This document shows positions 1,597-63,866 of a DNA stretch of 64,000 nucleotides, piece by piece. The position numbers and the translations under genes are program-made. The notes below the pieces were generated by a model. The model saw only the letters and a program-made list of their open reading frames with translations, did no database searches and had not been told where the DNA came from. Position 1 is the stretch's first letter; every line of letters begins with the position of its first letter. Source of the stretch: a virus. The stretch covers positions 65,881 through 129,880 of the IMG/VR virus record IMGVR_UViG_3300012984_000012. One strand, 5' to 3'.

Positions 1597-3276
1597 TCAG
1601 GGACTAGAAAGCGACTTCGAAAAGTCTGATGGAAACAGCGACTTGTTGCGCTGGTAGAAGTAGTCCCAATCCTCATCGAGGATGTATGAAGTGGCGTGAT
1701 CCGTGTCGTTTCTGATGCTACGACCCATCGCCTGGATGACAGACTTGACCGTCTGGAACGGGTACCACTTTGGGTCTCGTGACTTTCTCTTCTTGACAAC
1801 CTTGTCTCCCAGGTAAGGAAACGGGACCTTGCAAAGTATCTGGAAACGGCTTGCGTCGTCAGCCAGGTCGACTCCTTCCATCATGCTCGGTGACAGCAAC
1901 ACAGTCGGCTTCGTTCCGTTGACATGGTTCTTGAGGACCTGATCCCTGTTCTCTGAGTTATGAATCAGCAACCTGTCTGACTTCACGTTCTCATACAGGT
2001 ACTGAGCGATCTTGAAATTGACACAATGAACGATCCCCTTGTCGTTAGCATGCTGTTCCATGAGCATCTTGACGACCTCTGTCATCTTGGGTAGCGTCGA
2101 CTGTATGTTGTCCATCGACATCTTACCGGTCGGCAAGAAGTGTATGGGTCTGTTCTCGACCGGAAACGGTGACGGGATCCTGAGAAACGCAACGTCAGAC
2201 GGGTTTAAGCCTATCGTCCTGCAGAACACGTCGCGGTCGACGACGGTCGCTGACATCAGCAACACTCGCGATCCGAACCCATACAACATGTCGTACCCGT
2301 AGCTCGAGACGTCGATCGGTTTGAACTCATACCGGCGCTGGGCGCGAGCTCCAGCTGGTGGCTCGACGACGTTCATCACCCAGTTCTCAGCATTGAACGA
2401 TGTGATGAACCGATTGACCTTACAGATGTGCTTGTCAAGCATCTCGTATTGTTTGCTGTACTCTCCGAACCCAGCCATGCCCGAGCTAAAACGACTCTCG
2501 AGTGCCTTTTCGAGTCTCTGGAGGTGCTTCGCCAGCGTAGGTTGGTATGTCTTCCTGATCCATTCGAACACGATCAGCGCTCGCTTCTCTTCGTCGCCCT
2601 TCAGGGTCGGCAGCTTGCATTTCAGGACCTCCTTTGCGAACTTTTCAGAGAAGGTTACTTCGATGAACTTGCCGAGCTCGGCCTCGATGTTGTGACACTC
2701 GTCGATGACTAACATCTGTCGAGGCTTGATCGTTTTAGCGTACATCGTTTCAGCCAAGAAGTACGAGAAGTTCGTGATGCTGATCATCGATTGCATGAAA
2801 GCATCTTTCTCAATCTTGTACGGGCACTGTTGTTGACAACACTTCCAAAAGTCAGTGCCGACTAATTGCTTGCCCAGTTTGCTCAGGATCCTTCGTGACT
2901 CACCGCAATTTTGGTCCTTGTAAAAGTTGCACGTGAAATTGCTGCTCGACTTGATGCTGCACAGCAGGTTTTTCCTGCCAGGGCCAAAGTCGTTAACGTA
3001 CTGCTCTTGAAGGACTTTTTGGGTCGTCAACACGTACGCGCCAGCGGCGTTGCTTGCCTCTTCCGTGCTCATGAGATCCGGACGAGGGTTTGCAGCTAGG
3101 TATCGCGCGATCGTTATCCCTGTTGCTGACTTCCCACAGCCGGTTCCCATCTCAAGGATGACGAACCTCTTTCCTTCGACAAGATACGCGTCAAGAGCAA
3201 ACTCGATAGCCTGTCGTTGTTCGTCTCTGATTTTTGAGAACGGAAAGAAACCATCGTAGCTGTGCTTTGACACCAT
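1597..3276 (-). CDS. DinG/XPD-family SF2 helicase with Fe-S cluster
   Basis: Q-motif (RDEQ), Walker A GTGCGKS, Cys cluster C..C..C..CPY, DECH box, SMMEGVD, KVPFP, QAMGRSIR motif VI. Confidence 0.9.
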   Translation of the reverse strand: MVSKHSYDGFFPFSKIRDEQRQAIEFALDAYLVEGKRFVILEMGTGCGKSATGITIARYLAANPRPDLMSTEEASNAAGAYVLTTQKVLQEQYVNDFGPGRKNLLCSIKSSSNFTCNFYKDQNCGESRRILSKLGKQLVGTDFWKCCQQQCPYKIEKDAFMQSMISITNFSYFLAETMYAKTIKPRQMLVIDECHNIEAELGKFIEVTFSEKFAKEVLKCKLPTLKGDEEKRALIVFEWIRKTYQPTLAKHLQRLEKALESRFSSGMAGFGEYSKQYEMLDKHICKVNRFITSFNAENWVMNVVEPPAGARAQRRYEFKPIDVSSYGYDMLYGFGSRVLLMSATVVDRDVFCRTIGLNPSDVAFLRIPSPFPVENRPIHFLPTGKMSMDNIQSTLPKMTEVVKMLMEQHANDKGIVHCVNFKIAQYLYENVKSDRLLIHNSENRDQVLKNHVNGTKPTVLLSPSMMEGVDLADDASRFQILCKVPFPYLGDKVVKKRKSRDPKWYPFQTVKSVIQAMGRSIRNDTDHATSYILDEDWDYFYQRNKSLFPSDFSKSLSSP

Positions 3277-3311: not shown

Positions 3312-3932
3312 CTACTTCTTTAGCTTGACATCGCCGATAATGCGATCGACGATTCCCATCCGAATTGCTTCATCGGCGGTGATGTAATAATCGTGACCAG
3401 CTTTCATGATATCTTCGATCTCTTCGAGCTTTAGGTTCGTCTCCGCGGCGAGCGAGTTGACCATCAGATCATGAAGTCGACGGTGTTCTTTCGTCTCATG
3501 CATCACTTCAAAGACGTTTCCGATCGCACCACCAGAAACTGGGTGCATCATGATGCGAGCAGACTTTCCGATCATTCGCTTACCTTTTTCGCCAGCTGCG
3601 AGCAACAGGACTCCTGCAGACATCACCTTGCCCAGGGCGATCGTGTGAACCTGGCACGGTAGGAATTTCACCGTGTCATAAAGGCTGAACATCTCATCGA
3701 CGGAACCTCCGTACGTTGACACGACCATGTATATCGGATCCCTGCTGATGTTAGCGAGGTGTAGAAGTTGGGCGATGACCGCAGAGATCGTATGTTCGTT
3801 AACGTCACCATGCAACACGACGATCCTTGAGTTGTCGGGCTGCTGGGCCATCATGAACTGTTCTAACGCATCAGGACCGTTTGCGCTAGGAACGTTTCGT
3901 TTCGTGGCGCTCTCAAGTGTTGGACGACCCAT
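3312..3932 (-). CDS. clpP: ClpP-family protease
   Basis: STYGGSV, KVMSAG (catalytic Ser), MMHP (His), HDYYITADEA.RMGIVD (Asp region). Confidence 0.9.
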   Translation of the reverse strand: MGRPTLESATKRNVPSANGPDALEQFMMAQQPDNSRIVVLHGDVNEHTISAVIAQLLHLANISRDPIYMVVSTYGGSVDEMFSLYDTVKFLPCQVHTIALGKVMSAGVLLLAAGEKGKRMIGKSARIMMHPVSGGAIGNVFEVMHETKEHRRLHDLMVNSLAAETNLKLEEIEDIMKAGHDYYITADEAIRMGIVDRIIGDVKLKK

Positions 3933-4173: not shown

Positions 4174-4637
4174 TTGACGACCTCGGCTCGTTCGTATGTT
4201 TCGATCTTGAACATCTTTTCTCCCAGCAAACGAATGTACTTTCCTTGCTTCGTGTCGCCTTCAGTGTCTGACGTTAACACGACAAAGTTGCCCCATTGTT
4301 GGGTCTCAAAAATGAACTGCACGGCCTCCCAAGTGGGAAGGTCAGCATGATTGTTTTCCAGCACGGCAACAAGTTGTTCGGGCAGTGATGACTTGATGTC
4401 ATCGACTGACAGTATGGAACCCATCGCTTCACGACCTTGGATGATCTCAGAGCGACCTATTTCCGTGACTCGGTGTATCACGCCGCAGTTTGTGCATTGG
4501 GCAAATTTGGGTTTGACGACGTTGTCGTCGCCAATGACAGAGAAAACAGTGAACTGGTGTTGCAAGGGATGGACGGCATGTTTGAACTGTGGCAACACAC
4601 ACCGACACTTGACCAGATGTTTTTGACCCGAACTCAC
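4170..4637 (-). CDS. Hypothetical protein with possible Zn ribbon
   Basis: CRC...CTNCG motifs; GTG start with SD GAGGT; ATGA overlap with next gene. Confidence 0.7.
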   Translation of the reverse strand: MSSGQKHLVKCRCVLPQFKHAVHPLQHQFTVFSVIGDDNVVKPKFAQCTNCGVIHRVTEIGRSEIIQGREAMGSILSVDDIKSSLPEQLVAVLENNHADLPTWEAVQFIFETQQWGNFVVLTSDTEGDTKQGKYIRLLGEKMFKIETYERAEVVK

Positions 4638-4691
4638 GTTCGTACCTCTACTGTTTCAGAAACGCAAAGAGACCCTTGAAGGGTTTGAAGG

Positions 4692-4961
4692 TCACTTTTT
4701 TTTCGCGGTCAGCGGAGGCAACTCTGCCTCAGACACGGCCTCAGAGATGCACGTGTTGACGCTATTCATGAAGTTCTTGTGACCGCGATGGTAGCCTTCG
4801 TCTGCAGACGCTGCGATGAGTGACAGCAGTTTTTCGACGCTGGCAGCTTCGATCTTCAGCTGACCCCCGCGAATCGCGTTGACCAGATTTTGAGCCACGG
4901 TGTCCTTGACGCTCTCGTGGAGTGTCCATGATGTTTTACCGATCTTGTCTCGAGGTTGCAT
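4692..4961 (-). CDS. Hypothetical protein
   Basis: Start moved to ATG 4961 (MQPRDK), which has an AAGGGA SD-like sequence. Confidence 0.6.
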   Translation of the reverse strand: MQPRDKIGKTSWTLHESVKDTVAQNLVNAIRGGQLKIEAASVEKLLSLIAASADEGYHRGHKNFMNSVNTCISEAVSEAELPPLTAKKK

Positions 4962-5027: not shown

Positions 5028-6017
5028 ATGGCAAGAACGCTCAAAGAACAGTACGAAATCAAGAAGCTTCAACAGCGACTGAGGCCAATCGATCAGAAAC
5101 TGATGATCGAGCTGAGCATGTCAGACAACGATATGCTGATCTTTGAGGCATTCAACAAGCAACAGATGAGTGACGCAATCAAGATCGTCAAGCAGCTGAA
5201 AGCGATTAACTTCGGTCCCCTGACGACGCTTTCACAGGCACGGGACGCCGCAGTCAATGACGTGACCAAGGCGCTGGCTGGTAGTAAGGATCAAGGAATC
5301 ATTCGAAAGATCGTCAACCTTTTCAAGGGAGGAAAAGAGAACCCTCTCGTCGATGCGTTAGCATTTTGTGACGCGCTCAACAACTTCTTTGGCCAGTTCT
5401 CACAGTACGTCACCGCTTTGGGTAGTGACAAAGCAGACCAACCCCTGTCGACCATCGTCACAGGCAAAGATCCTGAGGAGCTCGCAGACCTTACAGCTGT
5501 TAATAGCCTCGGTGGAAAAGAGAAGGGTAATCTCAGGAACATGCAAAAGGTCATCGTCAACGGTTTGAAGCCGAATGGCGCGATCGGCAAACTTAGTAAA
5601 AACTGGATCGACAAATACCTTAAGGGAAAGAAGGGGCTTCAGACCCTAGCACGGGATCTACTCAAGATGTCACCTAACGACATCAACAAGATCAGCGAGA
5701 CGGTGACAAGCAATCTAAAAAACGCAGAAGCGATCGGACAGGCGGCAGCAGGCGCGTCCCAACAAGCGACCGTCGGCTCGAACCCTACCACTGGTAGCAA
5801 CGCATCAGGAGCATCACAGCCTGAGCAAGGAAGCGTCAGCAGCAAGCCTGGCTCGACAGCACCTGGAGCTCAGATCCCACCAGGGACATCCAAGGGCGCA
5901 GTGGACGTCGACAAGGTCATCGCAAGGATCAAGCCGGCGATGGAAGACATGGGTGTCAGGGACGTGAACAAGCTCGTCGCTAGCCTTGATGACCTGGGCG
6001 TTCTCAAGAATCCTTGA
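5028..6017 (+). CDS. Hypothetical helical protein, possibly virion/internal head protein
   Basis: 329 aa; SD GGAG; late-type motif upstream; S/G/P/Q-rich linker near the C-terminus. Confidence 0.7.
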   Translation: MARTLKEQYEIKKLQQRLRPIDQKLMIELSMSDNDMLIFEAFNKQQMSDAIKIVKQLKAINFGPLTTLSQARDAAVNDVTKALAGSKDQGIIRKIVNLFKGGKENPLVDALAFCDALNNFFGQFSQYVTALGSDKADQPLSTIVTGKDPEELADLTAVNSLGGKEKGNLRNMQKVIVNGLKPNGAIGKLSKNWIDKYLKGKKGLQTLARDLLKMSPNDINKISETVTSNLKNAEAIGQAAAGASQQATVGSNPTTGSNASGASQPEQGSVSSKPGSTAPGAQIPPGTSKGAVDVDKVIARIKPAMEDMGVRDVNKLVASLDDLGVLKNP

Positions 6018-10040: not shown

Positions 10041-10264
10041 GTCGTATCAAGCTGGTCAGTGACCTGTTGTCAGACGGCGTGACTCGCACTGCCTCTGATG
10101 TCTTTTATGCGTTATACTCTGAGTTTCAAGGAAGGTCATCAAAGATGACGCTCGCGTCGCTGTCTGGCACTCTCAAGCAGATGACAGACTGTGGTTACGT
10201 TGAAAGAGTTGAGAACTTTGGCCCTCGCGGAGGTTATGGTTACTATCGCACGAGGAACACATGA
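10037..10264 (+). CDS. Small winged-helix-like protein
   Basis: MSRIKLVSDLLSDG...SLSGTLKQMTDCGYVERVENFGPRGGYGY; ATGA overlaps at both ends. Confidence 0.55.
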   Translation: MSRIKLVSDLLSDGVTRTASDVFYALYSEFQGRSSKMTLASLSGTLKQMTDCGYVERVENFGPRGGYGYYRTRNT

Positions 10265-10989
10265 AGCAAGTTCACATCAAACAAAAGCTCGAGGAAATGG
10301 GCGTCGCCGTTGACGGCATCGTCATGGGTGATTTCGATCAGATCGGTGAGTTCACTGCCAAGCGTGACCGAAAACCTGACGATCCGAACTACAAGAAGTA
10401 CGGCGCCTTCTACCGAGCCAACTACGAGCGCGGCATCCTGATTTACCACCTCATCCGCCAGTACAACCTGACCTCGATGCTTGAGATCGGGTTTGGTCGT
10501 GGATATGCTACGTTTTGTGCAGCTCGAGCGTTTCACGATGCCGGCGTGGTTGGCAAGATCGTCACCATCGACCCATCGCTAGACGAGAATTACATCAGGG
10601 CGTTACAGAGCGTGTTACCTAACGACTGGTTCACGTACGTCACCTTCATGAAAGGTCGCTCACAAGAGGTCTTGCAAAAGGTCGAAGGTCAGTTCGATCT
10701 CGTGTACATCGACGGCGACCATTCTTACGCTGCCACAAAGGCTGACTGGGAACTCACCAAAGACAAGTACAACAAGTTCCTCCTGTTTGACGACTATCAC
10801 CTTCCCTCGAAAGAGGATAAGGGAACGATCCAGTGCAGCGTCGCCATCGACGAAGTCGATGACCCAAGCAAGGAACTGATCATCATGGATCGACGATTGT
10901 TTCTCGATGATCGTCAGTTCACTGACGACAAGATCAATTACGGTCAGGTCCTGCTCTCAAAACCAGGTGTCGAACGTGACGACTGGTGA
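10261..10989 (+). CDS. Class I SAM-dependent methyltransferase (Methyltransf_24-like)
   Basis: LEIGFGRG motif I; FDLVYIDGDHSY; FDDY. Confidence 0.88.
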   Translation: MKQVHIKQKLEEMGVAVDGIVMGDFDQIGEFTAKRDRKPDDPNYKKYGAFYRANYERGILIYHLIRQYNLTSMLEIGFGRGYATFCAARAFHDAGVVGKIVTIDPSLDENYIRALQSVLPNDWFTYVTFMKGRSQEVLQKVEGQFDLVYIDGDHSYAATKADWELTKDKYNKFLLFDDYHLPSKEDKGTIQCSVAIDEVDDPSKELIIMDRRLFLDDRQFTDDKINYGQVLLSKPGVERDDW

Positions 10990-15427: not shown

Positions 15428-16335
15428 ATCAGGTCTACGTGTTGCCTCCAAACGAGAGTTGGATCGTCGATCGCTTTGTCAAAGAGTGGAATGAGGACAA
15501 CGCTGACATCAGCGTACCTCACCCGTCACAGGCTGACGTGATCTGGGCCTTAGCAGACTGGTGCATCGACCGGCTTCCTCAGTCCCTTCTCGTGAAGAAG
15601 AAGGTCATAACGACAGTCCATCACATCGTACCAGAAAAATTCGGTCCTGGTGACCTAGCTAACTTCCAACAGCGCGACGCTGTCACCACGGTGTACCACG
15701 TCTATAACCGACGCACGTTCGATTTCATCAGGCCCCTGACCATCAAGCCCATTCACCTGATCCAGTACTGGGCGAACCAGAAGATCTGGCGGCCGACAGG
15801 GACACGAGATGACCTCAGGAAAAAACACGGCTTACCGTTGGACAAGTACCTCATTGGCTCCTTTCAAAGGGACACGGAAGGTTCTGGAATCCCGATGGGA
15901 ATCTTCTCACCGAAGCTAGAGAAGGGACCCGATCTCCTTGCAGACGCGATCATCTCATTCAAAGAGAAGAACGCCGACGTTGAGGTCGTCCTTGCTGGTT
16001 GGCGCCGGCAGTACATCATGCAACGACTCGATACGGCGGGGGTGAAGTATCACTACCTCGAGCTACCAGGCCAGCGCGCCATCAACGAGCTTTACCAGAC
16101 GCTGGACCTGTATCCCGTCACCGCGCGAACGGAAGGCGGCCCTCAAGCCCTGATCGAGTGTGGGCTCCTGAACGTGCCTGTCGTGTCACGCCCGGTTGGA
16201 ATTGCTGAGCAGGTACTCCCGTCAGAGGCCATCAGTGACAACGTCGTTGAAGCTACGCCCAGCGTTCCGAACGTTGAGTCGTGGAAGCTTCCAGCGGGTT
16301 ACGACCTGTACAGGAGACTGATCGCAGGACTATGA
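15424..16335 (+). CDS. Glycosyltransferase family 4
   Basis: EKGPD, RTEGGPQALIECGLLNVPVVSRPVG. Confidence 0.85.
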   Translation: MNQVYVLPPNESWIVDRFVKEWNEDNADISVPHPSQADVIWALADWCIDRLPQSLLVKKKVITTVHHIVPEKFGPGDLANFQQRDAVTTVYHVYNRRTFDFIRPLTIKPIHLIQYWANQKIWRPTGTRDDLRKKHGLPLDKYLIGSFQRDTEGSGIPMGIFSPKLEKGPDLLADAIISFKEKNADVEVVLAGWRRQYIMQRLDTAGVKYHYLELPGQRAINELYQTLDLYPVTARTEGGPQALIECGLLNVPVVSRPVGIAEQVLPSEAISDNVVEATPSVPNVESWKLPAGYDLYRRLIAGL

Positions 16336-24536: not shown

Positions 24537-25550
24537 ATGCACGAGTTTGGGATTTACATCGGACGTTTTCAACCTGCGCACCTCGCTCACATCGCGACTG
24601 TGCGTTTTGCGCTTTCTCAGGCCAAGCGTGTCCTGATCGTCATCGGTAGCGACAACCAAGCAAGAACGATCAAGAACCCATGGACGACTGCTGAGCGCAT
24701 TGCCATGATTGTCGGCGCTCTCACCCTCGAAGAGCAAGGTAGGATCACCTTCATCCCGATGCGTGATTACCTCTACAACGACAACCTCTGGATCGCTGAG
24801 ATCCAACGCACCATCACGGCACACACCGGTCCCTCAAAGGACGTCGTCCTCATCGGTCACGAAAAGGACGCTTCAAGCTTTTACTTGAAGCTGTTTCCTC
24901 AATGGACACTCATCCAGTCTGGTGTGAACATGCCAGGCGTTGACGCGACCAAGATCAGGGAGCTCATGTTTTCGCTCGACAAGATCGGCATCAAAAACTT
25001 CCTCCCAGAGAGCATTTACAACGACGTGTGTCACTTCATGGAAATGCCTGAATTCGACAGGCTCCATGCTGAGCACCACCACATCAAAGACTATAGGTCG
25101 CAGTGGGATAGCGCTCCATTTGCACCGATGTTCGTCACGGTCGATGCGATCTGCGTCTGCAGCGGTCACGTCTTGGTCGTACGAAGGGGAGGCGAACTCG
25201 GAAGGGGCCTAATCGCATTACCTGGCGGTTATCTCAACGGAAACGAACGAATCGTCGATGGCGCGGTACGTGAGCTTAAGGAGGAGACGGCGATCAAGAT
25301 GCCCGCTCTCGAACTCAAGAAACTCATCGTTGATGAAAAGGTGTTCGATCACCCGAACAGGTCGCTTCGCGGGCGCACGATCACACATGCGTTTTGCATC
25401 AATTTGGGTCGTGGCGAGCTTCCCAAGGTAAAAGGTTCAGACGACGCCGATAAGGCGTGGTGGATGCCTCTCGACACGGTGTACTCGCAAGAGGCAAGTT
25501 TCTTCGAGGATCACTTTCACATCATCACGTACTTCATCAACAGGATCTGA
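24537..25550 (+). CDS. nadM: Bifunctional NMN adenylyltransferase / Nudix ADP-ribose pyrophosphatase
   Basis: IGRFQPAHLAH, KNPWT..ER, DYLYND..W, GHEKDASSFYL..FPQW; Nudix box PGG...E....A.RELKEET; SDDA; alternative start at 24474. Confidence 0.93.
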   Translation: MHEFGIYIGRFQPAHLAHIATVRFALSQAKRVLIVIGSDNQARTIKNPWTTAERIAMIVGALTLEEQGRITFIPMRDYLYNDNLWIAEIQRTITAHTGPSKDVVLIGHEKDASSFYLKLFPQWTLIQSGVNMPGVDATKIRELMFSLDKIGIKNFLPESIYNDVCHFMEMPEFDRLHAEHHHIKDYRSQWDSAPFAPMFVTVDAICVCSGHVLVVRRGGELGRGLIALPGGYLNGNERIVDGAVRELKEETAIKMPALELKKLIVDEKVFDHPNRSLRGRTITHAFCINLGRGELPKVKGSDDADKAWWMPLDTVYSQEASFFEDHFHIITYFINRI

Positions 25551-25927
25551 TGAAACACCTGACTTGTTTCGTCGCTGGGCCATACTCGTCCAAGTACGGT
25601 TGGCCGGGCAGGGTCTATAATGTCGCCAAGATGCTGGTGTTCGTCCGTCGCATCCTGAAGATGGGAATCATGCCAATCGGTCCGAACGCCATGTACTTTT
25701 GGTTCTCAAAGTGCCAGCCTTACGAGTTCTGGCTGCCAGGGACCCGAAGCATCCAAGAGAAGTGTGACGTCATCTTTTTCATCCCGGGTTGGAAGGTCTC
25801 TGGCGGCGCTCGTCAGGAATATGAGCACGCAGAATCAATCAGCCAACCCATCTTCACATCGCTACTGTCGCTAAAGGTCTTCAGTGAGAGGACCTCATCA
25901 CAAAACACGGAGAGTGTGTCATCATGA
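25550..25927 (+). CDS. DUF4406 / nucleoside-deoxyribosyltransferase-like protein
   Basis: FVAGPY...CDVIFFIPGWKVSGGARQE. Confidence 0.7.
   Translation: MKHLTCFVAGPYSSKYGWPGRVYNVAKMLVFVRRILKMGIMPIGPNAMYFWFSKCQPYEFWLPGTRSIQEKCDVIFFIPGWKVSGGARQEYEHAESISQPIFTSLLSLKVFSERTSSQNTESVSS
25905..25917 (+). promoter_or_regulatory. 13-mer ACACGGAGAGTGT, copy 2
   Basis: Identical to 24523-24535. Confidence 0.6.
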
Positions 25928-27884: not shown

Positions 27885-28066
27885 GGCTCACGGTTGAGGA
27901 CACCGTGAAACAACTGTTACAACAACGGTGTGATTTCTCAAAGCAGTTTGCGGCTGGTAACCAGAACGTCCAGGTCGGCATCGAGTTCATCGATAACATC
28001 CTGGGACAGATGGTCCCAGGATACGCGCCGCCCAAGGGCTGTGGGTGTGGTTGCGATGACAAGTGA
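27872..28066 (+). CDS. Small hypothetical protein ending in GCGCGCDDK
   Basis: ATG 27872, 64 aa. Confidence 0.5.
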   Translation: MEQVGLTVEDTVKQLLQQRCDFSKQFAAGNQNVQVGIEFIDNILGQMVPGYAPPKGCGCGCDDK

Positions 28067-28075
28067 ATCTTGGGC

Positions 28076-28231
28076 CTGTACAACGGCACGAAGAAGGATT
28101 ACTTACTAGACATGCTACGAGAGTTGTGAATGCAAGGCGGTTGAACCGCAGTGTCTTGCGCGAGGACCTCCTCGACTAACACGTTCCGATCAGTTCGCTG
28201 TACGTGTTTTGTTTTGAGATGAAAGAGGTCT
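28076..28231 (+). promoter_or_regulatory. Putative promoter plus leader peptide/attenuator (uORF MLREL-UGA; +1 frame encodes ARGPP; anti-SD)
   Basis: CTGTAC-N18-TACTTA, ATG 28112 six nt later; TGA-A at 28127-28130; CGA GGA CCT CCT at 28161-28172; GGACCTC (28164-28170) complementary to GAGGTCT (28225-28231). Confidence 0.45.
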
Positions 28232-28234
28232 ATT

Positions 28235-28627
28235 ATGCTCACTGGTATTCAAGTTCTTCGTGCTAAGGTTCGTGGCCTGCAAGCTGCAGGTATTTCCATT
28301 CACAATCGTATTCGTAAGGCAAAAGGTCCGAAGCGAAACAAGCTGTGGGATGACAAGCGTACGCTCGGCAGTTACAGTCGGGAACACCTGATTGCTTACG
28401 GGTTGATGCGTGGCGTCCCGTATGATAGGATCGAAAGATGCGCAAAGGGAAACCAACCAAACGCTCGAACACTGTTCGAGCTGATGAAGGCTCACGCCGA
28501 TTGGAAAATGGCAAGGGAGCTCACCCTCGAAAAGGTCGAGGCGCTGCTGACGCCGTCAACCGAGCCAGTTCCTCGGTCAAACAGGCTCATGCGAAGGGCT
28601 CAAAAGGCCCTCGAAAAAAGCGCGTGA
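28235..28627 (+). CDS. Basic hypothetical protein heading the Pth2 operon
   Basis: SD GAGGT; R.HLIAYGLMRG.PY..IE motif. Confidence 0.75.
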   Translation: MLTGIQVLRAKVRGLQAAGISIHNRIRKAKGPKRNKLWDDKRTLGSYSREHLIAYGLMRGVPYDRIERCAKGNQPNARTLFELMKAHADWKMARELTLEKVEALLTPSTEPVPRSNRLMRRAQKALEKSA

Positions 28628-28635
28628 GGCAAGCC

Positions 28636-28977
28636 ATGGCCACCATTAAGATGGGCGACAAGCTCTTTCTAGTGACACGTCGTGACATCGCGCCTGGTTA
28701 TCAGGCCGTCCAGTCGTGTCACGCCATGAGGCAGTTCACCGCTGATCATCCTGAGGTCGATAACGACTGGTTCGCGAAATCAAATTACCTAGCGCTGTTG
28801 TCAGTCGACAACGAGATCGAGCTGATGAGGCTCCTCGTTGCCGCTACCGATGCTGGGTTAAGGTCATCTGCGTTTCGCGAACCAGACGTCGGTGGAGCCA
28901 TCACCGCTATCGCCATCGAGCCACACCCAAAAGCAGCAGAGTTGTGTAAATCGTTACCCCTGGCCCTTAAGGTCTGA
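28636..28977 (+). CDS. Peptidyl-tRNA hydrolase type 2 (Pth2)-like protein
   Basis: KLFLVTRRDIAPGYQAVQSCHA...L.V.NE.EL...FREPDVGGAITAIAIEP...LPL follows the PTH2-family layout. Confidence 0.8.
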   Translation: MATIKMGDKLFLVTRRDIAPGYQAVQSCHAMRQFTADHPEVDNDWFAKSNYLALLSVDNEIELMRLLVAATDAGLRSSAFREPDVGGAITAIAIEPHPKAAELCKSLPLALKV

Positions 28978-28992
28978 TCAGGTAACGAGAAA

Positions 28993-29628
28993 ATGATGAC
29001 CGAGCTCGATCGCACTTCGTTGAAGGTTTTTGGCCTGACTGGTGGGATTGCTAGCGGCAAGAGCACCGTCAGTCGGCTCTGGGCAAAGTGGGGAGTTCCC
29101 ATCGTTGACGCTGACCTGGTGTCACGCCAGGTGATGGTCCCGGGAGCTCCCGCCTTCAATGCTATCATCGAGTGTTTTGGGCTCGAGATAGTGACACCCA
29201 CGGGTGAGATCGACAGGAAGGCTTTGGGAAGCATCGTTTTTAGCGACAGCAAGAAACGAGCGTTGCTCAACTCAATAGTACACCCGAGGATCGCAAGCCA
29301 GACTCGAGCCATGTTCTCAGAGCTTCGTAGCAGCGGTGAAAAGCTAGCGTGTTATGACGCCCCGCTGTTGATCGAAGGCGGATTTGCAGCCGCTTTCAGG
29401 CCACTCGTCGTCGTCACGGTCCCGCCTGACGTTCAATTAAACAGGGTCATGGCCCGAGATGACCTGACTGAACAAGAGGCAAGATCTCGGATCTCGGCTC
29501 AGATGTCGCAGGACGCAAAGGTCGAGAAGGCTGACATCGTGATCAACAACGATGACGACCTATCAATGTTGATGTTTCGTGCTCGTCAGGCTCTTGACAG
29601 GGTGATGCAGATGGTTTCGGTCCCGTAG
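28993..29628 (+). CDS. coaE: Dephospho-CoA kinase
   Basis: GLTGGIASGKSTV, DAD, IDRKALG..VF, HPRI, DAPLLIE, R..AQM, ADIVINN. Confidence 0.95.
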   Translation: MMTELDRTSLKVFGLTGGIASGKSTVSRLWAKWGVPIVDADLVSRQVMVPGAPAFNAIIECFGLEIVTPTGEIDRKALGSIVFSDSKKRALLNSIVHPRIASQTRAMFSELRSSGEKLACYDAPLLIEGGFAAAFRPLVVVTVPPDVQLNRVMARDDLTEQEARSRISAQMSQDAKVEKADIVINNDDDLSMLMFRARQALDRVMQMVSVP

Positions 29629-29691
29629 CTCAGCGGTAGAGCATTCGGATTTCAACCCGATTTGTCGTGGGTTCGACCCCCACCGGGATCA
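29619..29691 (+). tRNA. tRNA with 8-nt anticodon loop ATTTCAAC (Glu-UUC plus 1 nt, or quadruplet UUCA); non-Glu-like body
   Basis: GGTCCCG/CGGGATC acceptor, GCTC/GAGC D-stem, TCGG/CCGA anticodon stem, 5-nt variable loop, GTGGG-TTCGACC-CCCAC, A73. Confidence 0.85.
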
Positions 29692-29694
29692 CAC

Positions 29695-29766
29695 GCTCTC
29701 ATAGCCTAGAGGTCAGGCAATCGGATTTCAACCCGAGTGACACAGGTTCGAACCCTGTTGAGAGCG
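29695..29766 (+). tRNA. tRNA-Glu-like with 8-nt anticodon loop ATTTCAAC
   Basis: GCTCTCA/TGAGAGC acceptor, GCCT/AGGC D-stem, TCGG/CCGA, 4-nt variable loop, ACAGG-TTCGAAC-CCTGT, G73. Confidence 0.85.
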
Positions 29767-29770
29767 CAAG

Positions 29771-60347: not shown

Positions 60348-60394
60348 GTGATACCATGGTAATCCGTTGTGACGTGATTTTCACTGAGAACAGG

Positions 60395-60465
60395 TCCGCC
60401 TGCTCGGAGTCGAACCGAGAGCGAAGCTTTATAAGAACTTCTGCGCCAACCGGGCACACAGGCAG
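60395..60465 (-). tRNA. tRNA-Ile (UAU)
   Basis: CTGCCTG/CAGGCGG acceptor, AAGTT-CTTATAA-AGCTT anticodon arm, CTCGG-TTCGACT-CCGAG, A73. Confidence 0.8.
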
Positions 60466-60489
60466 GTAATCATAAATGATACCTACCCT

Positions 60490-61188
60490 TCATATCAGCG
60501 CGTTGAACAGATCTTTGTTGTCACCGCAGTAGGCGCCGAGCTTGTCGAGCCAGGCCTTGCTCTTCTGCTTGAACATGATGGGTGCTTTCGTCTTCTTGTC
60601 GTTAGCAGCCTTACAAACGACGCCCTCGAACGTCATGCCGGGCAACGTGCTGGTGCGGACGCTGTTGATGAACTCAGGTGTCAGTTCGCCACGATATAAG
60701 ACCTTGGCCACGTCGAGGTGGCCAAACTGCCTCAGGAACAGCTCAGGCTCTAAGATCCCTTTCGTGAAAGGAGCGACGTCGAACAACGTCACGTCTTTCC
60801 ACTCGGTGGCATCGTGCATCCCAGCGAATGAACTCGGACCCCAAAACTCAAAAAAACACATCGCTCGTTCGTAACCTGCATCACGGAGCGCCTTGCCCAG
60901 CATGTCTCCGTACTTTGACTCGATCAACATGGGAACGCCACCAAAGATGGGATCGGTCGCGTCGACGAGCCTGTGTCGGGTGCCAAACTTGTGCCATCCC
61001 TTCTTTTTCGCCCACTCGGCACGGACGTTCGAGCCATCCAGCTTGTCGAAAGCGATGATGGGCAGGTGGCACTCGGTGGCGTACGGTAGCGATGGGTAAG
61101 ATTTCACGAGGTTCTCCGGTTCACGTTTTTCGTCGAGATCGTGCTGCTCGCGCTTGTCGCGGCGCTTGTAATGTTCACGCTTGTTCAT
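60490..61188 (-). CDS. RNA ligase-like nucleotidyltransferase (Rnl2-type adenylation domain)
   Basis: KSYPS, FDKLDGSNVR, FGTR, FEFWG, LFDV, EGVVCK, MFKQK. Confidence 0.8.
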   Translation of the reverse strand: MNKREHYKRRDKREQHDLDEKREPENLVKSYPSLPYATECHLPIIAFDKLDGSNVRAEWAKKKGWHKFGTRHRLVDATDPIFGGVPMLIESKYGDMLGKALRDAGYERAMCFFEFWGPSSFAGMHDATEWKDVTLFDVAPFTKGILEPELFLRQFGHLDVAKVLYRGELTPEFINSVRTSTLPGMTFEGVVCKAANDKKTKAPIMFKQKSKAWLDKLGAYCGDNKDLFNALI

Positions 61189-61468
61189 TTGCGATCCTTG
61201 CGAGCACGTCGCCGTGACACGCCTTCGGGTGACACCAACAACCGAGCACTTTTCCTTTGAGTTCTGTCTTGACACGTTCGATCATCGCTGGATCCTGTTG
61301 CAGGTACTCCTCAAAACAGGCGATCGCCTCTTCCCGAGAGTCGACCTTCACCTCGGCGAGGCTCTTGGGACTCTCGGAGAATGGGTTCCCCCAAGGTCCT
61401 GGACGTCCGATGTAGACATCGAACGGCTCCCTCTTGCAATGAACGACCCACCTGACGTTATCTGTCAC
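61175..61468 (-). CDS. DUF4326 family protein
   Basis: VVHCK...DVYIGRPGPWGNPF...L.GKVLGCWCHPKACHGDVL. Confidence 0.9.
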   Translation of the reverse strand: MTDNVRWVVHCKREPFDVYIGRPGPWGNPFSESPKSLAEVKVDSREEAIACFEEYLQQDPAMIERVKTELKGKVLGCWCHPKACHGDVLARIANEQA

Positions 61469-61486
61469 TGAAACCTACGTTCCTTG

Positions 61487-61711
61487 TCACGTGTCTAGGT
61501 TACAAACCTTGCAACGGTGCCCAGAAGTCGGACCTGACGGTCCATACGGATCGTCGTCGTGCCATTCTTCTAATGCTGACCTGCCGTCAGCGTACGTGTG
61601 ATTGCATTGGGATCTGATTACGCTCTCTTGGCGTTCCAACGCCTTGATCTGGTCCTTCACGTCCTTGAGCTTTTGCTCCGTGACGTCTGCCCACACGATC
61701 CTTTTCGTCAT
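61487..61711 (-). CDS. Hypothetical protein
   Basis: MTKRIVWAD start at 61711; CNH...CKVC. Confidence 0.6.
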   Translation of the reverse strand: MTKRIVWADVTEQKLKDVKDQIKALERQESVIRSQCNHTYADGRSALEEWHDDDPYGPSGPTSGHRCKVCNLDT

Positions 61712-62029
61712 TTCAGTCGCTCGGCCGCTTTGAAAGCCTGATCGTACGACGAACCGATCATGGTGTACAGGTCGTCTGGCGAGAATCCTGCGACGGGAGT
61801 CCCGGTGCTGTGAAACACCTCTGCCCTCTCGTGACACTCAGGACACAACGAGATGCCGTTTTGGGGTTACATAACCTCCGTTGGGCATGAGGTTCCTGTC
61901 GGTCACATGGTGGGCATCGAGCGGCTTCTCGACCGAGGCTGGAGACCCACAGGCCCGACACTTGTACCTGTCACGAGTGAAGACAGCGTCACGGAACCGT
62001 GCGCGGACGATTTTCTTATTAGACGACAT
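61708..62029 (-). pseudogene. HNH endonuclease interrupted by a single +1 frameshift
   Basis: Frame 0 RDRYKCRACG...LDAHH...NGGYV; +1 frame QNGISLCPECHERAE...; one extra base in ACCCCAAAA (61859-61867). Confidence 0.8.
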
Positions 62030-62103
62030 CTTTCGTACTCAGCGCAGCGACGTCTCGCTTCAAGACAGCACCGTACCATGACGTGTTGGTCGTGTACATC
62101 CAG

Positions 62104-62175
62104 AGCGAGTTACCGGGATCGAACCGGTGTCTCCTGGTTGGAAGCCAGGGGCACAGCCCACTATACCAAACTCGC
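62104..62175 (-). tRNA. tRNA-Gly (UCC)
   Basis: GCGAGTT/AACTCGC, CCTGG-CTTCCAA-CCAGG, ACCGG-TTCGATC-CCGGT, U73. Confidence 0.92.
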
Positions 62176-62254
62176 ATACGATTTCACCTGCACGCTTTTA
62201 TTGATCGCATACACGACCGCGTCTCGACGACTAGCGTCTATGGTTACTCTGCGG

Positions 62255-62327
62255 AGCAACCTCCGGGCTTTGCTCCCGGCGCCTTCACGTTGGCAACGTG
62301 ACGTTCTACTAACTGAACTAAGGTTGC
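62255..62327 (-). tRNA. tRNA-Gly (GCC) with non-canonical D- and T-loops
   Basis: GCAACCT/AGGTTGC, TCACG-TTGCCAA-CGTGA, T-arm CCGGG-AGCAAAG-CCCGG, D-loop AGTTAGTA, U73. Confidence 0.8.
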
Positions 62328-63094
62328 GTAAATTGCTGTATCTCTTGAAGAGATCGTAGCACGATGAGTTTAACGTTGTTTCTAGCTTGAGCATCACACA
62401 TTTTGTGTTCTGTCGCAAGCGTTGCATACCCCTTTACTTCTACGTAGGTATCTGTCAACGGAAGATAAAAATCTGGGTAATAACGTCGTGACCTTCCAAC
62501 ATCGTCAACATACAACAATGATCGAGAGGTGTTTCGTTCCCAAGTTACTTTTAACGCATCAAGTCGAATTGCAAGCGCTACTTCCCACTTACTGTCAAAC
62601 GCTTGACCGTTATAAGTCTGCGTGTTTCGTGGTCGATAACCGCCCGTTTTTCCTTGTGCAGCAATTGAACGTGAAATTTTTCGACACGTAGCTTTTAAAC
62701 ACGTGTTTGTTTTTCTGTTTCTACGTCGTTGGAAGACACTGTCACAAACTTTGCATGTTTCAATCGTGAATTCTGTGACATACTTGCGTCCAAGAAGCGC
62801 TAAACTTTGTTTAGCGCGAGTTTCAGACGAAGGTTGACGTTCGTTAGCACAACTACGAGAACAGTGTTTCGCGTGTTTTCCTAACGAAAACTGTTTCTCT
62901 GTCAATTTCAAAACGAAGCTTACGTGACACTTAGCACACGTAAACTGATATGAGTTACGTTGCTTAACGCGTTTCGCATTACGTTTCGCAAGCATCTCAA
63001 CGTATTTGGGATTGCATTTACAGTGTAACAGGTGTGAACCCAAAGATCGCCCGGATCTAAATTCAAGATCACAAAACCTACATGTGTGCTGCAC
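62318..63094 (-). mobile_element. Free-standing homing-type endonuclease (Zn fingers plus PD-(D/E)XK) inside the tRNA array
   Basis: CRFC..H..C, CAKC, HCSRSCA, CKVC; FDSKWE, YYPDFYL....YVEVKGY; visibly more AT-rich than flanks. Confidence 0.8.
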
Positions 63095-63110
63095 AGCTCA
63101 ACATCTCTAG

Positions 63111-63199
63111 AGGAAGGAGAGGGATTCGGACCCTCGAGCCCGCTTTCGCCGGCTACCGTCTTTCCAGGACGGCCGTTTAAACCACTCACGCACCCTTCC
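63111..63199 (-). tRNA. tRNA-Ser (GGA)
   Basis: GGAAGGG/TCCTTCC, loop CTGGAAA, long variable arm, T-loop TCCGAAT. Confidence 0.9.
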
Positions 63200-63203
63200 A
63201 TTA

Positions 63204-63398
63204 TCACATCTCTCGAGACAGGACGTATTGCTCTTCTCTCAGCTTCTTGACCTCGATGTCGGCAACATCACACGTCTGGAGCTCTTCCGCTTTTTTCAGC
63301 AGGTTTTTGATTTCTTGCAGCCTGTGTCGCTTGCGTTCAGCGGTGGTCGGAGGCTTGAACGCAAAAGGATCGTCTTGCAAAAAGCAGAGGTAACACAT
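63204..63398 (-). CDS. Small hypothetical protein
   Basis: 64 aa MCYLC..., between tRNAs. Confidence 0.55.
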   Translation of the reverse strand: MCYLCFLQDDPFAFKPPTTAERKRHRLQEIKNLLKKAEELQTCDVADIEVKKLREEQYVLSREM

Positions 63399-63419
63399 GC
63401 TCTTCTTACCTATTCCGAG

Positions 63420-63506
63420 CGGAAGCGGTAGGATTCGAACCTACGGGACCCTTGCGGGTCCGCCTGTTTTCGAGACAGGTGCCTTAAGCCTCTCGGCCAC
63501 GCTTCC
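63420..63506 (-). tRNA. tRNA-Ser (CGA)
   Basis: GGAAGCG/CGCTTCC, CCTGT-CTCGAAA-ACAGG, long variable arm. Confidence 0.92.
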
Positions 63507-63511
63507 AAAAT

Positions 63512-63769
63512 TTATCGTGACGGTTCCCACTTGACCCAATCGTCAGACGTGTCATTTGCTTGAGGCGTCCTAGACGCGTCTGGTTCTCGGAGTGAGACAA
63601 GGTATTTTCCGTCGACCTTGAAGACCTGGGTGTGACCGCATGCAGGGCACTCGTGCTCGTACAACCCAGGCTCAAAGACACGCATCGAAGGCGGGTTGTG
63701 CTCAGGGTGCCTGCAGACCTTGCGATTGTCCCAACAGCTTTCTTTAGTGTCAATCCTTCGTGTGGGCAT
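63512..63769 (-). CDS. Small Zn-ribbon hypothetical protein
   Basis: CRHPEHNPP...HECPACG; SD AAGGA. Confidence 0.6.
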   Translation of the reverse strand: MPTRRIDTKESCWDNRKVCRHPEHNPPSMRVFEPGLYEHECPACGHTQVFKVDGKYLVSLREPDASRTPQANDTSDDWVKWEPSR

Positions 63770-63783
63770 GTGATTTCTCTCGG

Positions 63784-63866
63784 AGGAGGGCGGGGGATTC
63801 GAACCCCCGGAACTTTCGTCCTTCCGCTTTCAAGGCGGACGCAATCGACCACTCTGCCAGCCCTCC
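63784..63866 (-). tRNA. tRNA-Ser (UGA)
   Basis: GGAGGGC/GCCCTCC, TCCGC-CTTGAAA-GCGGA, long variable arm. Confidence 0.92.

Follow-up and report, generated by a model that had tools for sequence, protein, structure and literature searches.

Which signal is read by a leader whose candidate ribosome-arrest motif lies behind a stop codon, in a frame without a start codon of its own? This question is raised by positions 28,076 to 29,766 of a 64,000-nucleotide (nt) stretch of viral DNA, hereafter the window, which forms the second half of the 129,880-bp IMG/VR virus record IMGVR_UViG_3300012984_000012 (record positions 65,881 to 129,880; G+C 52.7%; nine RNA genes, including a transfer-messenger RNA, tmRNA). 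A short upstream open reading frame (uORF) ends there at UGA-A, the codons for Arg-Gly-Pro-Pro (RGPP) follow in the +1 frame, and the genes downstream encode a basic 130-amino-acid (aa) protein, a Pth2-like protein, CoaE and two tRNAs with enlarged anticodon loops. An initial annotation, made from the sequence alone, had proposed a recoding leader that senses failing UGA termination and switches on peptidyl-tRNA rescue. Comparison with relatives supported the +1 shift at UGA-A, the RGPP motif, the pairing of its codons and the link to the tRNAs. It spoke against failing UGA termination as the main input: the recoding site varies with the anticodon of the operon's tRNA (UGAA, UAG, UAA, in-frame UGA or AUAA), and the hallmarks of the prfB frameshift are missing. 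From this comparison, the leader probably senses, through translation, whether the operon's own stop- or quadruplet-decoding tRNA is active.

Leader anatomy and the constraint on its reading frame

The leader, up to the start of the 130-aa gene and its Shine-Dalgarno (SD) sequence, has the following features:

28075-28105, plus strand: promoter-like pair, with CCTGTACA at 28075-28082, a spacer of 17 nt and TACTTA at 28100-28105
28112-28129, plus strand: uORF1, ATG CTA CGA GAG TTG TGA (MLREL-stop)
28127-28130, plus strand: UGAA, proposed four-base codon or +1 recoding site, complementary to the UUCA of the tRNA loops
28130-28145, plus strand: 0-frame mini-ORF, ATG CAA GGC GGT TGA, whose stop at 28142-28144 is a backstop to triplet read-through
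28131-28217, plus strand: +1-frame continuation CKAVEPQCLARGPPRLTRSDQFAVRVLF-stop (C K A V E P Q C L A R G P P R L T ...), stop at 28215-28217
28137-28149, plus strand: hairpin GCGG-TTGAA-CCGC, which begins 7 nt past the UGA and holds the backstop in its loop
28161-28172, plus strand: CGA GGA CCT CCT, encoding the candidate Arg-Gly-Pro-Pro arrest core and serving also as anti-SD
28179-28207, plus strand: inner hairpin ACACGT...ACGTGT, top of a long stem-loop on the anti-SD:SD base (RNAfold of 28158-28240)
28225-28237, plus strand: SD GAGGTCT (28225-28231) and ATG (28235-28237) of the 130-aa gene

The positions initially given for the promoter-like pair, the uORF, UGA-A, the RGPP codons, the SD and the gene starts all proved correct. 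The claim that the +1 frame has no start of its own was likewise right, as this frame contains no ATG, GTG or TTG back to a TAG at 28107-28109. Because the promoter-like pair ends 6 nt 5' of the uORF ATG, the uORF would be leaderless or nearly so. A promoter role of CCTGTACA and TACTTA is putative. CCTGTACA occurs 6 times in the window for 1.17 expected, and the same sequence or a near copy is found 5' of the uORF in many relatives; its other copies in the window include those at 16305-16314, 56568, 57302 and 61764. A scan for the sigma-70 consensus and for terminators did not call the promoter-like site, and called no terminator in the leader.

The backstop TGA, together with the A at 28145, makes a second TGAA that likewise opens into the RGPP frame. 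Hairpins of the 28137-28149 type are present in leaders that need a +1 shift, with the stem variants GCGG/CCGC, GCGC/GCGC and GTGC/GCAC, and absent from leaders with an in-frame stop; they may act as recoding stimulators. Up to the motif, the leader product counts about 17 residues and has no hydrophobic segment.

Relatives were collected in several ways. An IMG/VR search with the Pth2-like protein gave 18 loci (70-88% identity), an alignment built from these 18 gave 10 further distinct loci, and a metagenome scan at least 80 loci. The 130-aa protein, as a single query against viral contigs, had no matches. Leaders were gathered with a regular expression for R-(G/S/A)-P-P codons, leaving aside loci without upstream sequence or without the motif, as well as locus L141, where the motif lies within a long ORF and no 130-aa gene is found; the 77 loci so obtained, from viral and metagenome contigs, gave 43 unique leaders. 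The cultured-phage collection held no close relative of the record. The stretch was recovered in several soil metagenome runs, and the phage is described as a large soil phage. Over 27900-28309, the window has an identical counterpart in a contig of an independent soil study (run X4); as every letter of the leader recurs there, the extra base does not stem from an assembly error. Coincidence had been the other initial doubt, and judged by its recurrence in relatives the full arrangement is beyond chance.

A common layout is found among the relatives: CCTGTACA, a variable short uORF, (C/T)T(C/G) TGA ATG CAA, a small hairpin, GGACCTCC, a second hairpin and the SD. The short uORFs differ in length and sequence, yet all terminate at the recoding site. 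R-(G/S)-P-P is encoded at the homologous place in the 43 unique leaders, where the RNA pairs with the SD and start of the gene that follows. Twenty-six of the 43 are of the window's type, in which a +1 shift at UGA-A is needed to reach the motif. All 26 have TGAA followed by TG or CG.

The spacing between the recoding site and the motif is locked to one frame. From the nearest TGAA[TC]G to the Arg codon, we counted 19, 22, 25, 28, 34 or 58 nt, which is 1 mod 3 in 26/26 leaders; with the farthest TGAA[TC]G instead, this holds for 23/26, as L087, L122 and L124 contain a chance copy further upstream. The +1 frame is free of stops from UGAA to the Arg codon in all 26, these three included, and the 0 frame is closed ahead of the Arg codon in all 26 (by TGA in 12, TAA in 9 and TAG in 5). 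Among the 43 leaders, the Arg of the motif is written with six codons (CGT 20, CGA 12, AGG 4, CGC 3, AGA 2, CGG 2) and the Gly with four, Ser replacing it once. The frame constraint and the use of six Arg codons suggest that the +1 frame is translated. A relative from run X6, about 90% alike, has a 12-nt in-frame deletion within the spacer between UGAA and Arg, at window position 28146. Run X6 is a sediment RNA-seq library with possible DNA carry-over, whose contigs are uninformative on transcription, ends or stalls.

A known +1 shift at an in-frame UGA is that of prfB, the gene for release factor 2 (RF2), which is autoregulated by frameshifting at CUU UGA C with a slippery CUU-U, an internal SD and ordinary tRNAs. 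In the 26 leaders, the last sense codon is CTC (11), TTC (7), TTG (3), GGC (2), TAC (2) or GCC (1), and none of these re-pairs in the +1 frame. Slippage in the P site as in prfB does not explain entry into the +1 frame, because the preceding codon is variable and not slippery. Inspection of the leaders, with no formal scan, gave no shared GGAGG-like internal SD before the stop.

We then considered the pairing of the motif codons with the next SD. The initial annotation had proposed both an anti-SD:SD helix and an alternative local hairpin, CGAGG-ACCT-CCTCG. We folded the stretch between the Arg codon and the start codon: in the minimum free energy structure of the window, it is the SD region to which the RGPP codons are paired, through 10 anti-SD:SD pairs, and the local hairpin is not used. 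At least 5 such pairs are present in the fold of 42/42 relatives with distinct 130-aa proteins. The two strands change together, as in L031, where CCTCCTAAAA pairs with TTTTAGGAGG, and the inner hairpin is present in relatives with a different sequence. The RGPP/anti-SD segment is thus predicted by folding to hide the downstream ribosome-binding site. With a ribosome halted on the RGPP codons, the anti-SD would be occupied and the SD, about 60 nt further on, would become accessible. Stalled ribosomes are known to open a hidden ribosome-binding site in this way in SecM-secA and ermC. RGPP is reported as the most robust arrest sequence among RAPP-like cores, and as refractory to EF-P (PMC12992588).

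With a helix this strong and universal (42/42), the RNA itself might be the whole regulator: the anti-SD hairpin would repress, as a thermometer or as the target of a protein, and the uORF, the stop and RGPP would be by-products of CCUCC, which necessarily encodes Pro-Pro in one frame. We hold this for very improbable. An RNA-only element does not account for a spacing that stays frame-locked over six length classes, for an Arg kept through six synonymous codons, or for a +1 frame always open and a 0 frame always closed; nor does it predict that the leader stops co-vary with tRNA genes lying 1-2.5 kb away.

The operon tRNAs and the site that they would read

Two tRNA genes end the operon:

29619-29692, plus strand: tRNA 1, anticodon stem TTCGG/CCGAT, 8-nt loop AUUUCAAC at 29649-29656, UUCA at 29651-29654
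29695-29767, plus strand: tRNA 2, 8-nt loop AUUUCAAC at 29725-29732, UUCA at 29727-29730

As initially claimed, both have 8-nt loops presenting UUCA. Their bodies differ and share a 16-nt anticodon arm core; they score 55.2 bits (tRNA 1) and 51.4 bits (tRNA 2) as tRNAs in Rfam, and ARAGORN reports the odd loop. tRNA 1 begins before CoaE ends, the stop codon of the latter lying within the 5' end of the tRNA gene, and no room is left for a separate promoter between CoaE and the tRNAs. The anticodon stems vary in relatives (gccgg/ccggt, gtccg/cggat, gctcg/cgagt, gctgg/ccagc, gccag/ctggt) while the loop is constant. In the run X6 relative, T>C at 29721 and A>G at 29736 make a compensatory change in the stem of tRNA 2, and no loop change is among the differences listed. 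An exact search for the 16-nt arm core in IMG/VR gave 22 loci, none of them with a tRNA, and these were discarded as chance matches.

According to ARAGORN, nearly all relatives have odd-loop tRNAs just downstream, and a few have CUA or UUA tRNAs. We predicted the type of leader stop from the tRNA anticodon first, and then checked it in the leader sequence. The cognate tRNA was on the same contig for 34 of the 35 unique leaders with any tRNA there, the miss being L102. By class, UGAA leaders of the +1 type go with 8-nt N-Y-UUCA-A-N loops in 21/21 cases, in-frame UAG leaders with a CUA tRNA in 9/10, in-frame UAA leaders with a UUA tRNA in 2/2, and the in-frame UGA leader with a symmetric-loop UCA tRNA (1/1). 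Anticodon loops of 7 or 9 nt accompany 11/12 of the 0-frame leaders.

Individual loci illustrate these classes. L031 and L048, with CUA tRNAs, have an in-frame TAG followed in the same frame by RGPP two to three codons on. L063 and L064, with UUA tRNAs, have an in-frame TAA and then RSPP or RGPPP. L126 encodes two UCA tRNAs whose symmetric loop of 7 nt is bordered by a U-U mismatch, and its leader has TGA in the 0 frame and then RGPP. In L039, the tRNA at 5318-5391 has an 8-nt loop, GGUUAUGU, presenting UUAU, and the leader near 3480-3525 has a matching AUA-A, at which ribosomes from the promoter-proximal AUG would pass by +1 into the RGPPP frame. This single example is a possible sense-codon quadruplet (AUAA) version of the switch; the same leader can also be parsed with an in-frame TAA, from an AUG inside the promoter-like spacer.

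This co-variation bears directly on the idea of an RF2 or termination-efficiency sensor of the prfB or antizyme type, in which slow UGA termination would lead to a +1 shift by the host machinery, a stall and expression of the rescue genes, the phage tRNAs being inessential. It would fit the stop codon at the shift site, and competition with the release factor must affect any read-through. UGA is also the commonest stop of the phage (75/128 ORFs), and the +1 codon GAA is in principle readable out of frame by host tRNA-Glu. Such a sensor is unlikely in our view, since relatives have UAG, UAA or in-frame UGA, each matching the anticodon of the operon tRNA (34/35), while the P-site codon is not slippery and a conserved internal SD was not seen in the leaders inspected. 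Moreover, in amber and ochre leaders such a sensor would report on RF1, alone or with RF2, yet the output genes are the same. Because the recoding site follows the operon's own anticodon and the prfB hallmarks are missing, we take the tRNAs to be the quantity sensed, and not a side loop. Termination efficiency must then be a secondary input, release-factor competition setting the threshold.

With the tRNAs as the quantity sensed, the leader would work as follows. In the off state, a ribosome would start at the near-leaderless uORF and meet UGA-A after five codons; if the release factor wins, translation would terminate. At most, the ribosome would re-start on the abutting AUG and stop again five codons later, where the second TGAA (28142) would offer a second chance at the RGPP frame. 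With the RGPP/anti-SD segment still bound to the SD and start of the 130-aa gene, that gene would not be translated. In the on state, a phage tRNA with the 8-nt UUCA loop would decode UGAA as one step and thereby bring the ribosome into the +1 frame, where about ten codons would be translated before the arrest that we infer at Arg-Gly-Pro-Pro. The arrested ribosome, placed on the anti-SD, would free the SD and AUG, and both the 130-aa protein and the Pth2-like hydrolase would be made. The residue inserted at UGAA may be Glu, judging by the UUC-A core and by the body of tRNA 2, which resembles that of a Glu tRNA.

The tRNAs might instead read the stop as a triplet or serve another purpose, for instance as decoys for anticodon nucleases, with the +1 shift brought about by the hairpin and host factors and the match of UUCA to UGAA incidental. 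The loop can indeed be parsed as A-Y-U33-[UCA]-A-N, that is a triplet anticodon with an extra 5' base, and classic 8-nt-loop suppressors are thought to shift after triplet pairing (10.1101/2020.12.31.424971, PMC8464047). One locus, L072, also fits better with triplet reading: its sole visible tRNA (2584-2657) has an 8-nt CUA loop, ACUCUAAG (UCUA), beside a leader (near 870) with an in-frame TAG-C and a 0-frame RGPP. It is the sole break of the loop-size rule, on a contig that ends 128 nt past the tRNA, so that a second tRNA is possible; speculatively, a non-complementary fourth base forces triplet reading there. Against such an incidental match, loop size follows the frame (8 nt with +1 in 21/21, 7 or 9 nt with the 0 frame in 11/12), the fourth base is A in 26/26 leaders of the +1 type whereas A, C, G or T follows the stop in amber leaders, and a hairpin alone leaves the dependence of stop type on anticodon unexplained. 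We judge incidental matching to be improbable. Whether all four bases pair at once, as we infer, or a shift follows triplet pairing, the circuit is unchanged.

Operon output and other possible clients of the tRNAs

The operon content initially proposed (a basic hypothetical protein, a Pth2-like protein, coaE and two tRNAs) was confirmed. The protein genes are:

28235-28627, plus strand: basic protein of 130 aa without known family, directly 5' of the Pth2-like gene in relatives
28636-28977, plus strand: Pth2-like protein of 113 aa, starting 8 nt past the stop of the 130-aa gene
28993-29628, plus strand: CoaE, a dephospho-CoA kinase (PF01121, 192 bits)

The gene order around the leader is NAMPT, a 168-aa ORF, a small ORF, the leader, the 130-aa gene, the Pth2-like gene, CoaE, the two tRNAs, a small Cys-rich ORF, a PD-(D/E)XK nuclease and a glycosyltransferase. 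The upstream gene is presumably NAMPT, by similarity to a prior annotation; the 168-aa ORF, which had no Pfam match, is tentatively labelled macro. In relatives, the 130-aa gene is likewise followed by the Pth2-like gene, a variable insert, tRNA(s) and the nuclease, and the succession of 130-aa gene, Pth2-like gene and odd tRNA(s) was found in 18/18 of the first loci and in further ones. Among these 18, CoaE lies between the Pth2-like gene and the tRNAs in L023 and L024 only, as in the window; the other loci have different inserts.

For peptidyl-tRNA rescue as the output, the single piece of evidence is the Pth2 family match, which holds and is weak, so that hydrolase activity is putative. The 113-aa protein matches PF01981 with an E-value of 6.7e-7 (30 bits for a cut-off of 23) and phrog_1866 with 1.5e-16. 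Its family profile matches solved archaeal chains 2zv3 and 1wn2 (E 3.8e-5) and human Bit1 (1q7s, 3.6e-4). At the presumed catalytic positions of Pth2, an invariant E82 faces the Asp of the archaeal RDAG stretch in the alignment, and the Lys-rich GKGK loop has no clear counterpart. Given the 8-nt gap, translation of the Pth2-like gene is probably coupled to that of the 130-aa gene. The latter's product is modelled as a long helical hairpin with short helices (pLDDT 93.7) and has no Pfam or PHROG match. Several outputs can be imagined. The two proteins may recycle or release peptidyl-tRNA formed by read-through; the stalled complex on the leader itself may be among their targets, in which case the circuit would feed back on itself like SecM/SecA; or they may limit the charge of the phage tRNA.

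Distant phages point to the same dependence by other routes. Their Pth2-like genes start M-x-TAG, with the TAG at codon 3, in four distinct sequence types that stand beside CUA tRNAs where tRNAs are visible:

L065 and L067, 3001-3336: Pth2-like gene with TAG at codon 3
L068, L120, L121 and L125: Pth2-like gene with TAG at codon 3
L100, 2622-2957: Pth2-like gene with TAG at codon 3
L102, 1123-1455: Pth2-like gene with TAG at codon 3

A Pth2-like gene with TAG at codon 4 is also found in L112, near 3492. In all these genes, amber suppression would gate the hydrolase directly. L144 (near 3120-3215) and L146 (near 1060-1140), both with CUA tRNAs nearby, have leaders of the form M-K-K-TAG-...-K-P-P-TAA and M-L-TAG-V-F-K-P-P-TAA, each followed by a hairpin to the SD, with KPP-stop in place of RGPP. 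Because codon-3 TAG genes and KPP leaders occur in distant phages, dependence of the Pth2-like protein on suppression appears to be a recurrent theme, reached in more than one way.

We also looked for other clients of the tRNAs. With the standard bacterial code (table 11), 128 non-overlapping ORFs cover 95.8% of the record, and their stops are TGA (75), TAG (31) and TAA (22). TGAA ends 12 of the 128, and the +1 extensions of these 12 are no longer than after other stops. Among long open frames, +1 extensions of at least 60 codons follow TGAA in 8/60 cases, TGAC in 12/69, TGAG in 9/54 and TGAT in 11/75; over the whole genome, extensions in the 0 or +1 frame are not in excess after TGA or TGAA. 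Two candidates were rejected. ORF 10261-10989 merely overlaps the next ORF, which has its own ATG, and a second TGAA followed by RGPP, at genome position 31027 on the minus strand, is a chance occurrence, both frames being off the true acidic coding frame. Flanking genes of close amber-type relatives, in the regions that were compared, are free of in-frame TAG. This holds for 115 of 124 loci, the others being accounted for by the codon-3 TAGs and by a single doubtful case, L048. There, the homologue of the small Cys-rich ORF (4551-4796) has one in-frame TAG by tblastn; the alignment is poor before it, and the gene may start after it. So these phages have the standard code and yet carry stop-reading tRNAs, which on our reading are monitored.

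Six ordinary tRNAs (Ile-UAU, Gly-UCC, Gly-GCC, Ser-GGA, Ser-CGA and Ser-UGA) lie in a cluster on the minus strand at window positions 60393-63866. Outside the window, ARAGORN finds the tmRNA at genome positions 25321-25688, minus strand, with the tag ANDNGTAPLALVA. One phage thus carries stop-reading tRNAs, a Pth2-like gene and a ribosome-rescue RNA.

On balance, we lean towards a private decoding channel: a wild-type tRNA with an 8-nt loop and its matching four-base codon (UGAA here, UAGA or AUAA in relatives), whose sole conserved client is the leader that turns tRNA activity into an arrest-peptide switch. This would be a quadruplet pair naturally selected for regulation. The Pth2-like and 130-aa proteins may in turn influence the stalled complex or the tRNA, in a homeostatic loop.

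Several points weigh against reading the leader as a tRNA sensor. All evidence for it, though internally consistent, is comparative. Presence of the motif in the 43 leaders is partly built in by the regular expression, and frame, position and pairing alone are independent of it; besides, the anti-SD needs CCUCC, which by itself gives Pro-Pro in one frame. L072 combines an 8-nt loop with a 0-frame leader, and no cognate tRNA was found for L102 on its 3.9-kb contig or for L068 and L125 on 3.5 kb. No gene needing UGAA decoding was found in this genome. Fold searches with the 130-aa model (ESM Atlas, Foldseek against PDB, VIA-align wide) gave generic helical-hairpin matches only, the best Z of 8.8 being below chance level for helical hairpins. 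Finally, 22 of the 36 inner branches of the Pth2 tree are open, and this tree is too poorly resolved for counting independent class switches: five states need at least 4 changes, and the starred branches force no more. Four of the 43 leaders were excluded from the tree as their Pth2 match was shorter than 96 residues, and alignment A2 was made without L065 and L068, which have an in-frame stop.

Relation to known systems

In the literature searched, which left aside subscription journals and supplements, we found no description of an arrest leader gated by a suppressor or quadruplet tRNA, nor of a phage module combining Pth2 and suppressor tRNAs. If the leader is indeed a tRNA sensor, tRNA decoding activity would be added to the inputs of arrest peptides, and engineered amber-gated leaders would have a natural counterpart. 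Evolution would then use four-base decoding, so far regarded as essentially confined to laboratory suppressors and designs (PMC9094753), and the phages would provide synthetic biology with tRNA scaffolds pre-tuned to UGAA, in a compact system of about 1.7 kb. Suppressor tRNAs, a Pth2-like enzyme and a phage tmRNA are linked by a theme: large phages of standard code tamper with termination and appear to monitor it. This has a bearing on how stop-codon recoding begins in phages.

Stop-codon-recoded phages (crAss-like, Lak and others) encode CUA, UUA or UCA suppressor tRNAs, and read-through has been proposed to time gene expression (10.1101/2021.08.26.457843, PMC10879173). The phages studied here encode tRNAs with the same anticodons. 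Here, in contrast, the genome is not recoded, as seen from the coverage by table 11 and from TGA as commonest stop, and the only client found is the leader.

Frameshift suppressors with 8-nt loops (sufD, sufA6, SufB2), like engineered quadruplet tRNAs, come from laboratory mutation or design and serve to rescue frameshift mutations (PMC9094753, 10.1101/2020.12.31.424971, PMC8481270), and natural quadruplet tRNAs are expected to be very rare (PMC9094753). The window tRNAs resemble sufD, sufA6 and SufB2 in having an 8-nt anticodon loop, a normal stem, four bases complementary to the site and, presumably, a +1 outcome. They differ in being wild-type phage tRNAs, conserved together with their target site across many phages, and regulatory in their proposed role. 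One natural tRNA with an enlarged anticodon loop has likewise been proposed to read a stop codon; in that case the proposed function is the rescue of a protein-coding gene, and no sensor, arrest peptide or co-variation data come with it.

A synthetic leader-peptide switch with an inserted UAG was built by Liu, Qi, Yanofsky and Arkin in 2011, as summarized in a review (PMC6412442). There too, read-through by a suppressor tRNA in a leader decides the expression of a downstream gene. The synthetic switch is engineered, of the tna/trp type and transcriptional, whereas the leader described here is natural, would act on translation by unmasking the SD, and in this phage would use a four-base codon.

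With prfB, the leader would share a +1 shift at an in-frame UGA and a sensor in competition with a release factor. It differs in that the preceding codon is variable and not slippery, the product would be an arrest peptide and not the protein itself, and the site co-varies with a dedicated tRNA.

The closest likeness in the motif is with the RAPP/RGPP arrest peptides (ApdA, ApdP, ApcA, SecM with RAGP, and uORFs of Streptomyces lividans; PMC12992588). These likewise have Arg-(Ala/Gly)-Pro-Pro in a short upstream ORF, and here as there the ribosome-binding site of the following gene, otherwise hidden in a structure, would be exposed by a ribosome halted at the motif. Known members of this group monitor export or membrane insertion, and their arrest is relieved by pulling on the nascent chain. 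In the present leader, no signal or membrane segment is found, the motif codons are themselves the anti-SD, and the genes downstream encode a protein of unknown family and a Pth2-like protein rather than components of the Sec/YidC type. Because the motif sits behind a stop or four-base codon, the signal would be the decoding of that site by a particular tRNA.

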